DNA of 64,000 nt from Escherichia phage vB_EcoM_JNE01 (OR670491), one strand, 5' to 3'; shown: positions 17,440 through 19,556, counted from the first letter of the stretch. Notes: a model not told the origin generated them from the letters alone. Translations and numbers: made by a program.

Positions 17440-17502
17440 TATAGAGAATAGTACAGGATACTAAGGTCTAGATGTGTTCCTAGGGAAGCATTATAACAGG
17501 CT

Positions 17503-17570
17503 TTAACATCTCGTAAAGATGTTAAAATTCAGCCTGCTCGACGTCTGAATTGTTAAAATTCAGCCTGGAC
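17503..17570. repeat. hairpin ttaacatct-cgtaa-agatgttaa followed by direct repeat gttaaaattcagcctg x2
   Basis: perfect 9-bp inverted repeat at about 17505-17527; 16-nt direct repeat copies at about 17521 and 17552. Confidence 0.55.
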
Positions 17571-17696
17571 AAATGCGATCACTAGGATTCTATCTAGGCT
17601 GAATCCCGTAATCACAAGTACGCATATGTAATCATATATAAACATTTCCGTGAGAAGTTTTGAGTACTGTATAGTATTAAGAATCACCGTAGGAGC

Positions 17697-17750
17697 ACAG
17701 AATGATTAAGAATGCACGGGAATGATTCAGAATGATTCAGTACTGATATG
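17697..17750. repeat. reiterated gaatgatt(a/c)ag units ending in the attcagtactga palindrome
   Basis: gaatgattaag...gaatgattcag gaatgattcagtactga read directly. Confidence 0.45.
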
Positions 17751-17760
17751 TCACTAAGTA

Positions 17761-17787
17761 GGCAGAGGAAGTCTGCCGTACTTTTTA
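17761..17787 (+). terminator. rho-independent terminator closing the small-protein array transcript
   Basis: ggcaga-ggaa-gtctgcc hairpin followed by gtacttttta. Confidence 0.5.
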
Positions 17788-18124
17788 GTTTCCAAGCTCC
17801 TTTTCCATTTTTCAAATTACATCAAATGCAATCAAAAGTAATCACGCAATGATTAGTACTGAATTATTACTTTCACCTTAATTTCAAATACCCGTTGACC
17901 CTTCGGGGTAAAATTCCATTACCCCTTGAGGCTCCAGCAAAAAGTTGGTTAGTACTCCATCCTAAATCTCGATCCTAAAAATTTTGGAGTACCTATGAAA
18001 TAAAAGTTGGATCTTCGAAAGTTGAAATTTACGTTGGGATGATTAGGATTTGTGAACTATAATGTAGTTCAAGTTGGAGTACAGAGTGAGAACAATCTAG
18101 AGTACTGAAAGATGAAATAACATC

Positions 18125-18153
18125 TTGACAATACAATTCAGTACTGTATAATG
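18125..18153 (+). promoter_or_regulatory. orphan sigma70-type promoter (TTGACA-N17-TATAAT) with no downstream ORF
   Basis: ttgacaatacaattcagtactgtataat; downstream about 120 nt has no ORF beyond a few codons, contains a Chi octamer and ends in a T-run near 18275. Confidence 0.5.
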
Positions 18154-18159
18154 TTGTAC

Positions 18160-18280
18160 ATAGGGTGAGGGAACGGCGGCAACTGTTCCTTAATCTCAGT
18201 ATCATGTCGTGAGACATTACGCAAGTTATATCCTCCTGTGCATAGTGCTGGTGGTTATCTCTTGAACCTCATTTTTTCTC
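18160..18280 (+). ncRNA. candidate small non-coding transcript from the orphan promoter
   Basis: inference only: promoter without ORF, internal hairpin ggaacggcggcaactgttcc, terminal T-run. Confidence 0.2.
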
Positions 18281-18345
18281 GTGAACTAAACAGTACTGAT
18301 ATTAACAGAATGGTAGCAGTACTGATATTAATCTAATGCATTATG

Positions 18346-18365
18346 CCACCAGCTTGTGCTGGTGG
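18346..18365. repeat. perfect palindrome ccaccagc-ttgt-gctggtgg (Chi octamer paired with its complement)
   Basis: read directly; contains GCTGGTGG at about 18358-18365. Confidence 0.7.
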
Positions 18366-18376
18366 ATTCCCTCTAA

Positions 18377-18457
18377 CAGTATTCAGTACTACATGATGGT
18401 CTTCATCCTCCTGGGGTAACATAGTGAAGGTTATGATGGCAGTACTGAATACTCCAA
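18377..18457. repeat. 13-bp inverted repeat agtattcagtact / agtactgaatact flanking about 55 bp
   Basis: read directly from sequence. Confidence 0.5.
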
Positions 18458-18479
18458 ACTCAAGATGGATTAAGGGTGT

Positions 18480-18665
18480 AGTACTGACGGATTTTGGGTG
18501 TAGTTACCCTGGATGGATTTTGGACGTAGATATGTCTAGCCCTCCAGAAGTCTGGAAGTAAAGATGGCTATCCATCTAGACGGCTAAACGGCTAGATTTC
18601 TGGATGGCTGGACGTTTGGACGGCTAAACGGCTAAACGGCTAAACGGCTAAACGTCTGGATGTAT
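18480..18665. repeat. iteron-like cluster: TGGATGG / GGACG units, palindrome agatggctatccatct, and ggctaaacg tandem repeat (x4-5)
   Basis: cggctaaacggctaaacggctaaacggctaaacg at about 18620-18655; several tggatgg copies upstream and downstream. Confidence 0.6.
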
Positions 18666-18897
18666 GGATGGCTAAATCAAAATTTTATTTTGTTTTTTCC
18701 AATAGTTCCCCTACCGCGTGGGGATAGTTTCCCCGCAGTATCTGGTGTTAGATTTTTCTGAATCTGGAATCATTATCTTATAAACTGGGGGCAATGTCAA
18801 CGGCCTGGACGGATATTTTTAAAAATTTTTTCAGTACTGAATTTTGGGCGTAACTATGCACCCGGTGGGCTTGAGTCTTTCTCGACTTGATGGAACT

Positions 18898-18925
18898 ATT
18901 ATACAGTACTGAAAAAATAAAGCAA
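18898..18925 (-). promoter_or_regulatory. minus-strand sigma70-type promoter (TTGCTT-N16-TATAAT) reading into a CCCACCGGGTGC box
   Basis: reverse complement reads attgctttattttttcagtactgtataat; box at about 18864-18880 lies about 25 nt downstream on minus strand. Confidence 0.4.
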
Positions 18926-19290
18926 TACCCTGGAAGCAAAAAAGTTTTAATTAATTTGCTTGCTATCCTGGGCCGGACTATGGTACTATATTTCAGTACT
19001 GAGAAAGTGCGTTTACCTGCTAGGGTGCGGGAGTGTATCCTTTTTTTATATCTTGAATTTTGGACGGATCTTCCCACCCCCTGGGGTATCCGCTTTCTCG
19101 CGTCTATGTAGTAATTATACGCTTTTTCAGGATCAAGTCAATACCTAAAAACAAAATAATTGAAAATAATTTAACGCGTTTAAACGGCCCGTAACGCCCT
19201 GGAATGATTAGAATGGTGCAAATGTATAGCTTAGGTGTATTAATGCGTTAGAATGCGTCTGAGGCCGTTTTATGGGGTGTAGTAGTGATT

Positions 19291-19470
19291 TGGTTGATTC
19301 AGTACTGAATAATAGTACTCCTATATAGAAAGATAGTTCCCCTGGATTGATTCAGTACTGAATGATAGTACTGAATAATAGTACTCCTATATAGAAAGAT
19401 AGTTCCCCTGGATTGATTCAGTACTGAATGATAGTACTGAATAATAGTTCCCCTATATAGAAAGAAAACT
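19291..19470. repeat. tandem direct repeat, about 66-bp unit x about 2.5 (gattcagtactgaatgatagtactgaataatagtactcctatatagaaagatagttcccctggatt)
   Basis: near-perfect copies read directly; the minus-strand ORF 19299..19502 with internally repeated peptide is an artefact of this repeat. Confidence 0.7.
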
Positions 19471-19496
19471 ATTTTAAAAGTATTTGTAGAAAGTAC

Positions 19497-19556
19497 TTGC
19501 ACAGTACTGATAAAAGCGTATAATGTTTTACATCGAGAGCGGGAACTCTTCCCGCT
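19497..19556 (+). promoter_or_regulatory. early promoter (TTGCAC-N16-TATAAT) + 5' GC-rich stem-loop (agcggga...tcccgct)
   Basis: first copy of the recurrent promoter/5'-hairpin module. Confidence 0.6.

Follow-up and report, generated by a model that had tools for sequence, protein, structure and literature searches.

Terminal repeats of about 20 kb have now been reported for many jumbo phages. Phage fEgEco12 has a direct terminal repeat (DTR) of 20,993 bp whose ends were mapped by PhageTerm and restriction digests, repeats of ~20 kb were identified in G17, Sharanji and fENko-Kae01 by PhageTerm or coverage analysis, and a 21,525-bp repeat is annotated in the vB_Ec-M-J record. Promoters are predicted in the CBB paper. 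The texts of the fEgEco12 and Sharanji papers hold no mention of such a region under non-coding, intergenic or promoter terms, and the Sharanji text none of a Chi site.

The DNA analysed here is a 64,000-nucleotide stretch (the window) of Escherichia phage vB_EcoM_JNE01 (OR670491), a jumbo coliphage with a chromosome of ~370 kb. An original prediction, made from the sequence alone, had singled out a two-kilobase non-coding island at 17440–19520 and proposed a replication origin, a packaging-initiation region or a DNA-injection control region. The window has the same end sequences and the same repeat length as Asteriusvirus and related jumbo phages (fEgEco12, G17, vB_Ec-M-J and Sharanji; fENko-Kae01, Muenster and CBB). 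Judged by this homology, the island surrounds the left physical end of the chromosome of an Asteriusvirus (PBECO4/121Q-like) jumbo coliphage.

Results

The island contains the predicted left end of a 21-kb terminal repeat

The island matches 41 Asteriusvirus records at 85–91% identity. Seven deposited relatives, fEgEco12 included, start at the base equivalent to window position 17757; their shared start sequence, AGTAGGCAGAGGAAGTCTGCC, is found in G17 at the record end, reversed. The right end of the repeat reads GGGGTAACCT/TAGC (the slash marks the end), and the bases GGGTAACCT finishing at 38972 are the last bases of five relatives. Because seven relatives start at the one position and five stop at the other, the DTR is placed at 17757–38972, a position taken from homology to relatives, some of whose records may be oriented to match each other. 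The alignments show the predicted left end to be formed between 17756 and 17757 in replicating, concatemeric or circular DNA.

17756/17757: left genome end, start of the DTR (homology to relatives' ends)
17757–38972, plus strand: whole DTR, 21,216 bp, with ~35 early promoters and 11 same-strand Chi

The island thus laid out consists of 317 bp of unique DNA, the end and a 1.82-kb non-coding DTR leader, after which ~50 small genes of the DTR follow up to 38972. Nucleotide similarity with 121Q and fEgEco12 extends from ~210 bp before the left end to ~90 bp past the right end; the gene arrays flanking the DTR have no nucleotide similarity with these two phages. A likeness between the left and right end sites was considered and rejected, as the two share nothing beyond chance 9-mers and look unrelated. 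The proposal of packaging initiation or a terminus is supported, with the left physical end inside the island at 17756/17757 (PMC13070987); that the island holds a terminal-repeat boundary had gone unrecognised, and the proposal of an origin gains no positive support (see below).

The claim that the island has no credible ORF stands. None of seven ORFs tested has a PHROGs or Pfam match, and no annotated gene lies under the island match in the G17, 121Q and PBECO4 records. The largest ORF (99 aa, 18778–19077, minus strand), annotated in some records, is not conserved and was rejected as a gene: it is frameshifted in phage SD-2_S15, its stop is lost in 121Q, and its variable columns fall 23/18/21 over the three codon positions, which is no codon-position bias. 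The gene-free DNA runs past the predicted limit of 19520 to 19579, the first gene starting at 19580; an ATG at 19523 lies inside the −10 hexamer of that gene's own promoter. The window contains no tRNAs.

Conserved blocks flank the end

Conservation around the end is confined to discrete blocks.

17440–17550: variable spacer after the last small gene, with a hairpin
17502–17527: inverted-repeat hairpin, 10-bp stem TTTAACATCT/AGATGTTAAA, at the left edge of the conserved block
17551–17650: conserved 100-nt block, TGTTAAAATTCAGCCTGGACAAATGCGATCAC..., with two GTAATCA motifs (−206 to −107 from the end)
17698–17740: GAATGATT(C/A)AG decamer repeats with a GAATGATTC palindrome core (TRF period 10, 4.3 copies)
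17738–17756: CAGTACTGATATGTCACTA, conserved, adjoining the end on the unique side; nearly invariant in five phages
17757–17786, plus strand: terminal hairpin GGCAGA-ggaag-TCTGCC, then a T run (terminator-like match 17761–17777)
17757–18040: nearly invariant terminal block, with a CTCCATCCTAAATC...TCCTAAA motif at 17955–17979

Approximately 90% of the columns of the 100-nt block are identical in five phages and the DNA on both sides of it is variable; the block is a candidate recognition sequence for end formation. At the hairpin on its left edge an inverted repeat is kept in three of five relatives, with differing stem interiors. This hairpin had been described with a 9-bp stem at 17505–17527; it exists, with one more base pair and a start at 17502. 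The direct repeats claimed for this part are exact copies of TGTTAAAATTCAGCCTG at 17520 and 17551, and the reiterated gaatgattcag units correspond to the GAATGATT-type decamers, a stretch that is poorly conserved among relatives.

Inside the repeat, the window base is matched in 97–100% of ten relatives over the terminal block (first ~290 bp), and even 121Q, the most divergent relative, is 97% identical in the 250-bp bin that starts at 17750. The CTCCATCCTAAATC block is found again in Klebsiella phage fENko-Kae01, which likewise has a small hairpin at its extreme left end. Past the first 290 bp the leader is, against 121Q, no better conserved than the coding part of the DTR, and its least conserved part is 18040–18280, downstream of the orphan promoter described below. 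The cis signals for end recognition and processing may consist of the 100-nt block, the 19 nt at the end, the terminal hairpin and the first 290 bp; the hairpin with its T run would shield the DTR from read-through out of the upstream gene array.

Repeats and palindromes exceed chance

In the island 172 10-mers are repeated and 101 are inverted, against medians of ~27 and ~18 in 30 window tiles of the same length, so that the predicted density of symmetric and reiterated elements is beyond chance; the top tile on both measures (157 and 79) presumably overlaps the island. With GTAC-containing words removed, the island is still near the top in repeat content. The main elements are these:

18378–18453: 13-nt inverted repeat pair on the CAGTACTG palindrome, AGTATTCAGTACT (18378–18390) and AGTACTGAATACT (18441–18453)
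18464–18532: three 21-nt direct repeats, GAyGGATTTTGGGTGTAGT, spaced 22 and 26 nt
18547–18680: 8-bp periodic iteron array, units GGATGGCT, GGACGGCT and AAACGGCT
19240–19272: block TTAATGCGTTAGAATGCGTCTGAGGCCGTTTTA, common to the island and the T5 injection-stop region
19301–19465: 66-bp tandem repeat, 2.5 copies, with CAGTACTGAAT palindromes in each unit (TRF score 316, 97% matches)

Three of these had been reported with other boundaries: the inverted pair at 18377–18457, the tandem repeat of about 66 bp at 19291–19470, and a TGGATGG/GGCTAAAC iteron-like cluster at 18480–18665, which is present as the 8-bp periodic array at ~18547–18680. The ACGGCTAA unit of the array is perfect over 4.4 copies. 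Similar 8-bp arrays stand at the record start of PGT2 and near the record end of KPV811, both T7-like, and occur in T5-like Vibrio and Aeromonas phages and in other jumbo phages. Copy number of the 66-bp repeat varies among relatives, the window having an extra copy. Proteins could bind to the 8-bp array, to the 21-nt repeats and to the 66-bp CAGTACTG repeats, which would then be the counterparts of the short repeats flanking the terminal repeats in T7 and T5.

The over-represented AGTACT core was considered as a set of SlmA sites and rejected, because TTCAGTACTGAA breaks SlmA specificity positions 1 and 3; no full SlmA site occurs in the window or in fEgEco12. No Fur box was found in the island; Fur-box-like palindromes are present in relatives and in the T5 injection-stop region.

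Predicted promoters face both into the repeat and towards the end

Approximately 35 early promoters are predicted, of the form aaaAGTAC-TTGCAA/TTGACA-N16-TATAAT-gttttacatc followed by a GC hairpin. The leader carries the following:

18125–18152, plus strand: orphan predicted sigma-70 promoter TTGACA-N16-TATAAT (12/12 against consensus), 5' hairpin at 18169–18189
18898–18925, minus strand: predicted leftward early-family promoter TTGCTT-N16-TATAAT with the cagtactgTATAAT signature (consensus match)
18960–19050, plus strand: weak predicted rightward promoter, short leader CAGTACTGAGAAAGTGC, terminator-like hairpin and run of seven T (19022–19048)
19022–19080: inverted boxes AGGGTGCGGGAG (19022–19033) and CTTCCCACCCC (19070–19080), conserved in three genera
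19114–19141, minus strand: predicted leftward promoter TTGACT-N16-TATAAT with the aaaagcgTATAAT early-family signature (consensus match)
19497–19579, plus strand: predicted promoter (consensus 19497–19524), 5' hairpin and ribosome-binding site of the first DTR gene (start 19580)

An orphan TTGACA/TATAAT promoter had been predicted at this place with a spacer of 17 and an end at 18153; the promoter stands, with a spacer of 16 and an end at 18152. Its membership of the early family had been overlooked, as had the two leftward promoters, which are the only family-type minus-strand promoters of the DTR. The one at 18898–18925 contains an exact 16-nt inverted copy of the −10 region of the orphan promoter, and the −10/start region of the other, GTCTATGTAGTAATTATAC, hardly varies between Asteriusvirus, Alcyoneusvirus and fENko-Kae01, the last showing a single A/G difference. 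fEgEco12, fENko-Kae01 and Muenster each have a rightward consensus promoter 270–370 bp inside the left end, and Muenster and RaK2 have a canonical TTGCAA-N18-TATAAT promoter at the position homologous to 18960–19050. An IMG/VR scan with the conserved 18-mer TCTATRTAGTAATTATAC was discarded, as it returned only 121Q, RaK2 and chance matches. Through these host sigma-70 early promoters, one rightward without a gene and two leftward towards the end, the leader would become active on entry into the cell.

Chi sites are concentrated in the repeat

The island holds three Chi octamers within ~0.6 kb of the end.

18247–18254, plus strand: Chi octamer GCTGGTGG
18346–18365: back-to-back Chi pair CCACCAGC-ttgt-GCTGGTGG, 590–609 bp from the left end

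The pair is the palindrome of a Chi octamer and its complement named in the original prediction, with CCACCAGC at 18346–18353 and GCTGGTGG at 18358–18365; the single Chi had been missed. The distance of the pair from the end is 578/590 bp in fEgEco12, 577/589 in 121Q and 484/496 in fENko-Kae01, which belongs to another genus; the first 2.7 kb of Muenster (Alcyoneusvirus) are free of Chi. All 11 plus-strand GCTGGTGG of the window lie inside the DTR, where ~0.1 would be expected from the composition of the fEgEco12 repeat. Phage fEgEco12 itself carries 10 Chi within its 21-kb repeat, compared with 14 over the remaining 333 kb (0.48 versus 0.042 per kb); the repeats of 121Q and fENko-Kae01 have nine and 12. 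Six of the 11 in the window DTR are outside ORFs and the other five are read in the frame GCT-GGT-GG, not CTG-GTG; the frequency of Chi outside ORFs has been used as an argument that Chi is under selection in the terminal redundancy of P1. The Chi distribution of the DTR looks selected rather than accidental.

The strand ratio in the DTR is 11:2, so that 11 of 13 Chi face a RecBCD entering from the right end. Since Chi outside the repeat are mostly on the sense strand, part of this orientation bias may follow the coding strand. The Chi pair and the Chi-dense repeat would switch host RecBCD from degradation to RecA loading, and such a switch would protect the ends and promote recombination between both terminal repeats to give circles or concatemers. 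Dependence on RecBCD and Chi is not required, because the phage has genes of its own for UvsX, gp46/47-like and T4-like replication proteins.

Alternative roles of the island

The transcripts predicted above raise the question of a non-coding regulatory RNA locus, with a ~200-nt RNA from the orphan promoter and an antisense pair from the convergent promoters at ~18900–19140. The RNA 18159–18375 folds better than 200 of 200 shuffles (z −3.15), the convergent promoter cassette with its complementary boxes is kept in three genera, and the hairpin at 19022–19048 resembles a terminator; but the T run of that terminator is missing in other genera and the region of the orphan transcript is poorly conserved. 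Rfam at permissive E-values gave three chance-level matches to eukaryotic families (two microRNAs and one scaRNA), with best scores of 16–21 bits against gathering thresholds of 65–90. Compared across the three genera, the stem of the inverted boxes shows no compensatory changes, and for that reason a DNA role and an RNA role of the boxes are not separable. We regard an RNA locus as improbable. The same promoters could prime replication through an R-loop, as at T4 oriF/oriG, or the iterons could bind an initiator. Promoters with no gene behind them, convergent transcription, AT-rich runs, iterons and a T4-like replisome would suit such an origin, and cumulative GC skew turns at 17–18 kb of the window, with the whole-genome minimum at the left end. 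The minimum, however, largely tracks gene orientation, nearly all genes being on the plus strand, and conservation is lowest in the segment that follows the orphan promoter. Arrays like that of the island occur at the record start of PGT2 and near the record end of KPV811, both T7-like, and in T5-like genomes; T5 origins map near the middle of the T5 genome. There is no initiator gene nearby and not a single DnaA box (TTWTNCACA), either as consensus or with one mismatch, in 17000–20000; with DnaA boxes absent the origin in the original prediction is not supported, and it appears very unlikely.

Likeness to phage T5 suggests another possibility, an injection-stop or entry checkpoint: the right end would enter first, the host-promoter-driven genes of its repeat copy would act, and transfer would pause at the island, on the inner boundary of the copy, and await release by early proteins. 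As here, the T5 injection-stop region, 1.2 kb long, is not translated, is rich in repeats and palindromes and straddles the boundary of a long terminal repeat, which it overruns by 270 bp. The 32-nt block at 19240–19272 is 87.5% identical to T5 9346–9376 (E 2e-4), AATGAGAATCATT palindromes are common to the relatives' leaders and the T5 region, and in the T5-like phage Pontus an island-type 8-bp array adjoins T5-type TGCAAATCCGAC repeats. Like T5 pre-early DNA, the DTR has only small genes behind host-type promoters, and its Chi mostly face the right end. Chi orientation is a weak guide to the entry end, however, because the only two Chi of the T5 left repeat face away from the end that enters, and the T7-like layout is equally compatible with entry from the left. 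DnaA boxes, a proposed conserved hallmark of the T5 region, are lacking here, and tblastn of T5 A1, A2, dmp and T5.007 against the window and the fEgEco12 genome gave nothing below E 0.02, remote homologues being possible. On balance a checkpoint is unlikely. Elements like those of the island are also found in unrelated terminal-repeat phages of enterobacteria and vibrios (Rak2-like jumbo, T5-like Demerecviridae and T7-like Ermolevavirus phages). One could speculate that these shared genome-end signals (the 8-bp GGATGGCT/GGCTAAAC array, the GCGTTAGAATGCG block and GAATGATTC-type palindromes) act via a common host factor or physical step, and that Rak2-like phages inject in stages as T5 does, with the Chi-armoured repeat entering first from the right end, takeover genes switched on, a pause at the island and RecBCD-Chi recombination with the other repeat; we consider this doubtful.

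Discussion

In the island we see, with good confidence, the control region at the left end of an Asteriusvirus, a jumbo phage with long terminal repeats. On this reading it pins the left end to a single base, with conserved flanking blocks as candidate terminase signals, and the repeat opens with a T7-like leader bearing predicted promoters. It would also account for assemblies of such phages breaking or permuting at the island, and ORFs called within it would be spurious. The motifs in common with the T5 injection-stop region and T7-like genome ends are a lead towards a shared mechanism at phage DNA ends.

The left end of T7 has a 160-bp terminal repeat, short-repeat arrays, the leftward E. 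coli promoter A0 and the rightward promoters A1–A3. Both there and here a gene-free leader, of 925 bp in T7 and 1.82 kb in our phage, separates the physical end from the first gene; strong host sigma-70 promoters, predicted in our case, point inward with at least one aimed at the end, and arrays of 7–8-bp repeats lie near the repeat boundary, T7 having 11 CCTAAAG in its first 340 bp. The T7-like phage PGT2 has the same GGATGGCT/GGACGGCT array, 40–112 bp from its record start. Unlike T7, the repeat is 21 kb rather than 160 bp and includes the leader, the repeat unit is of the GGCTAAAC type rather than CCTAAAG, and a promoter for a phage RNA polymerase is absent. An 11-mer common to the island and T7, TCCATCCTAAA, was set aside as within chance expectation.

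In T5 the nearest parallel is the injection-stop signal, Repeat Region 3, which lies on the inner edge of the left terminal repeat of 10 kb. This region and the island are both more conserved than the neighbouring genes, and Repeat Region 3 also has a pair of 66-bp direct repeats and nine short repeats in series; the T5 repeat, like the DTR, has only early host-takeover genes. The island differs in its lack of DnaA boxes, no homologues of A1/A2 were found, and the DTR genes are all transcribed away from the island.

The closest parallel for the Chi sites is the terminal redundancy of P1 and its relatives, together with the Chi-rich lambdoid phages (Subramaniam and Smith; Genome Res 2025), in which, as here, Chi is the top G+C-rich octamer. 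Chi density in P1 equals that of the DTR (one per 1.9 kb), and in both Chi are concentrated in terminally repeated DNA and are as common outside ORFs as inside. P1 Chi occur in both orientations, whereas those of the DTR are strongly one-stranded, and the present phage, in contrast to P1, is a virulent jumbo phage; its ends are fixed, it has UvsX and gp46/47-like recombination genes of its own, and a conserved back-to-back Chi pair lies at a fixed distance from the end.

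The island is a conserved gene-free region of jumbo phages

Over 2.08 kb the gene-free, repeat-rich island, initially placed at 17440-19520, has matches of 85-91% identity in 41 phage records, almost exclusively from jumbo phages of Escherichia or Salmonella, 310-385 kb in size; the records inspected for genus (G17, SD-2_S15 and 121Q) belong to Asteriusvirus (PBECO4/121Q group). No gene is annotated beneath the match in the G17, 121Q and PBECO4 records, and several others carry short 'hypothetical proteins' across it. The elements listed in the original prediction were all found in the sequence, with slightly corrected coordinates. 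The hairpin is present at 17502-17527 with a stem of 10 bp, the orphan promoter has a spacer of 16 nt rather than 17, and a third Chi octamer, missing from that list, lies at 18247. Among 2.08-kb tiles of the window the island ranks at the top for repeated and inverted 10-mers, and still at or near the top when GTAC-containing words are excluded. The claim that it holds no credible ORF was borne out: the largest, a minus-strand ORF of 99 aa, carries a frameshift in one relative and has no stop in a second, with variable columns spread 23/18/21 over the codon positions, and none of seven ORFs tested in the island has a match in PHROGs or Pfam. The gene-free stretch extends to 19579. For the first repeat gene the relatives have two annotated starts, giving 420 nt or 363 nt (window 19523-19942); the ATG of the longer form, at 19523 in some annotations, is contained in the -10 hexamer of that gene's promoter, which leaves 19580 as the credible start.

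A probable genome end lies within the island

The direct terminal repeats of the related phage fEgEco12 are 20,993 bp long, as detected by PhageTerm and confirmed with restriction digests (PMC13070987), and base 1 of that genome aligns to window 17757. Seven deposited genomes from different laboratories start exactly at the equivalent base, with AGTAGGCAGAGGAAGTCTGCC; one of the seven, G17, is deposited in reverse and so has its end there. Five of the seven terminate in ...GGGTAACCT, which corresponds to window 38972. Because the relatives' starts match 17757 and their ends match 38972, the repeat is present in the window as a single full copy at 17757-38972 (21,216 bp). Coverage or PhageTerm analysis has likewise given repeats of ~20 kb in G17, Sharanji, fENko-Kae01, Muenster and CBB, and a repeat of 21,525 bp is annotated in the record of vB_Ec-M-J. 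The putative left end (17756|17757), placed by homology to mapped relatives, is well supported. On this placement, the island is 317 bp of unique DNA, the left end and a 1.82-kb non-coding repeat leader (17757-19579).

Nucleotide similarity to 121Q and fEgEco12 is confined to ~17547 to ~39059, the small-gene arrays on both sides of the repeat having none that is detectable; the repeat is a conserved block between hypervariable flanks. Compared with 121Q, the repeat has 75-98% identity, and the arrays just outside its two boundaries (13000-17500 and 39060-41000) have essentially no nucleotide similarity.

The right-end site (38928-38976) consists of TTGGACTATG, 35 nt ending in CCT, the end and TAGC, and shares motif and exact spacing with the Klebsiella phage fENko-Kae01; left and right end sites have no similarity to each other. 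End annotation within the genus is uneven. The BAU.Micro_ELP-22 record stops ~130 bp before the right end common to five other genomes, and the 8.3-kb repeat reported for UE-S1 is probably misassigned, according to the fEgEco12 paper (PMC13070987).

Conservation and promoters of the leader

Features of the left end and leader
17551-17650, conserved 100-nt block on the unique side of the end
Abutting the left end, conserved 19 nt on the unique side
18125-18152, orphan promoter, a member of the early-promoter family, hairpin included
18925-18898, minus strand, leftward family promoter directed toward the DNA end
19141-19114, minus strand, leftward family promoter directed toward the DNA end

The DNA between the 100-nt block and the 19 nt at the end is not conserved. 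At the block's left edge, three of five phages retain an inverted repeat, with differing stem interiors. On the repeat side, a hairpin with a trailing T run takes up the first 26 nt and resembles a terminator on the plus strand. Across ten relatives the first 290 bp of the leader are 97-100% identical (~97% to 121Q, the most divergent); the next 240 bp, surrounding the orphan promoter, are its least conserved part, and the rest is conserved to about the level of the repeat's coding part. The 66-bp repeat differs in copy number among relatives. Over 18040-18280, a segment that opens shortly before the orphan promoter and takes in the first ~120 nt of its predicted transcript, only 45-75% of relatives agree. 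Even so, none of 200 shuffles folds as well as the predicted RNA 18159-18375 (z -3.15), in which two CCUCC motifs occur.

About 35 predicted promoters of nearly identical sequence lie in the repeat, each ahead of one small gene (window 19497-38093). They form an unusually stereotyped promoter-leader cassette, in which an A-rich upstream tract (aaa) and AGTAC precede a -35 of TTGCAA or TTGACA; after a spacer of 16 nt come TATAAT and gttttacatc, then a 5' hairpin rich in GC and a ribosome-binding site. The two leftward promoters are the only minus-strand promoters of this type within the repeat. That at 19141-19114 has a -10 and start region almost invariant in Asteriusvirus, in Alcyoneusvirus (Muenster, RaK2) and in fENko-Kae01, and in all three groups a consensus promoter directed rightward is found at 270-370 bp from the left end. 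Between the convergent promoters lie two conserved complementary boxes, AGGGTGCGG and CCGCACCCT; no compensatory changes were seen in them, so that a role as RNA would be hypothetical.

With 307 occurrences in the whole window where 21.5 are expected, the palindrome AGTACT is 14-fold over-represented; CAGTACTG occurs 61 times, for an expectation of 0.7. AGTACT is densest at 16-22 kb and nearly absent from 44-48 kb; fEgEco12 has 977 copies genome-wide, densest in its repeat. Many copies sit at the edge of early-promoter -35 or -10 elements, and the word is also common within genes. Its identification as an SlmA site was rejected.

Chi sites are concentrated in the terminal repeat

The 64-kb window has 11 plus-strand copies of GCTGGTGG, every one of them within the repeat (span 18247-37611), where base composition predicts about 0.1; complements number only two, and the other 43 kb of the window have zero Chi sites. 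Sequence contexts of the sites are unrelated to one another. Six of the 11 are outside ORFs and the remaining five are in frame GCT|GGT|GG. The complete fEgEco12 genome has 10 plus-strand Chi per 21-kb repeat versus 14 in the other 333 kb, and in its repeat Chi is the commonest G+C-rich octamer. Outside the repeat Chi has a tendency toward the sense strand, a caveat to the reading of its orientation. Nine Chi are found in the 121Q repeat and 12 in fENko-Kae01, which is of a different genus cluster, and none in the first 2.7 kb of Muenster. A back-to-back pair recurs at 590/602 bp from the left end in the window, 578/590 in fEgEco12 and 484/496 in fENko-Kae01. The Chi/anti-Chi palindrome of the island is part of a Chi-rich terminal repeat, not an isolated curiosity.

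Plus-strand Chi as written acts on RecBCD arriving from the right end, and the complement at 18346 on RecBCD entering the left end. Any action through RecBCD has to be set against the UvsX and gp46/47-like genes that these phages themselves encode. In P1, 50 Chi sites cluster in or near the terminal redundancy and have been argued to drive RecBCD-RecA circularisation; Chi density is equal in the two, and the P1 argument rests on the same non-coding and frame criteria.

Relation to known control regions

A sensitive search found three kinds of sequence sharing with unrelated phages. Arrays resembling the 8-bp periodic array (18547-18680) occur 40-112 bp from the record start of the T7-like PGT2, near the record end of KPV811, and in T5-like Vibrio and Aeromonas phages, Erwinia jumbo phages and GAP32; in the T5-like Pontus such an array adjoins the TGCAAATCCGAC repeats that characterise the injection-stop region of T5. 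That region has a 32-nt block in common with the island (E 2e-4), and its AATGAGAATCATT palindromes are also in the Muenster, RaK2 and fENko-Kae01 leaders. Klebsiella jumbo phages have GAGAATGATAATCATT-type palindromes in the leaders of their repeats, T5 has them in its injection-stop region, and the window has only GAATGATTC cores. The GAGAATGATAATCATT-type palindromes match up to 16 of 19 positions of the E. coli Fur-box consensus (counted by eye).

Positions of GAGAATGATAATCATT-type palindromes
Muenster, 780-1100 and 1300-1330
fENko-Kae01, 700-800 and 1040-1060
T5, 9550-9720

T5 Repeat Region 3 is likewise untranslated (1.2 kb), has repeats and palindromes, and straddles the inner terminal-repeat boundary. 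By the testable defining features, however, the island falls short of a T5-type stop signal, because it has no DnaA boxes and no homologue of T5 A1/A2 was found. The cumulative GC skew turns at the island and has its whole-genome minimum at the left end, which mostly tracks gene orientation. Neither DnaA boxes nor an initiator gene were found in the island. A replication origin of the R-loop type, fired from the orphan promoters, is an unlikely alternative that has no positive support. In the upstream plus-strand array of ~60-aa genes (14000-17400) the GC skew is negative and the AT skew strongly positive, unlike in the plus-strand genes of the repeat; the skew sign therefore changes at the island and not at the coding-strand switch.

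The best explanation of the island is a genome-end control region, in which the site of left-end formation and its flanking signals are followed by the repeat leader; the roles given to individual elements are ones that we infer. Text searches of the fEgEco12 and Sharanji papers turned up nothing on non-coding, intergenic or promoter features, nor was the Chi island or the cross-family sharing of motifs mentioned in the papers examined. The leader would be a T7-like, promoter-bearing, Chi-armed and repeat-rich start of a 21-kb terminal repeat carrying early genes. The left end of T7 follows the same logic, with an annotated 925-bp gene-free leader, eleven CCTAAAG repeats, the leftward E. coli promoter A0 and the rightward A1-A3, and this kind of element is already known from T7, T5 and P1.
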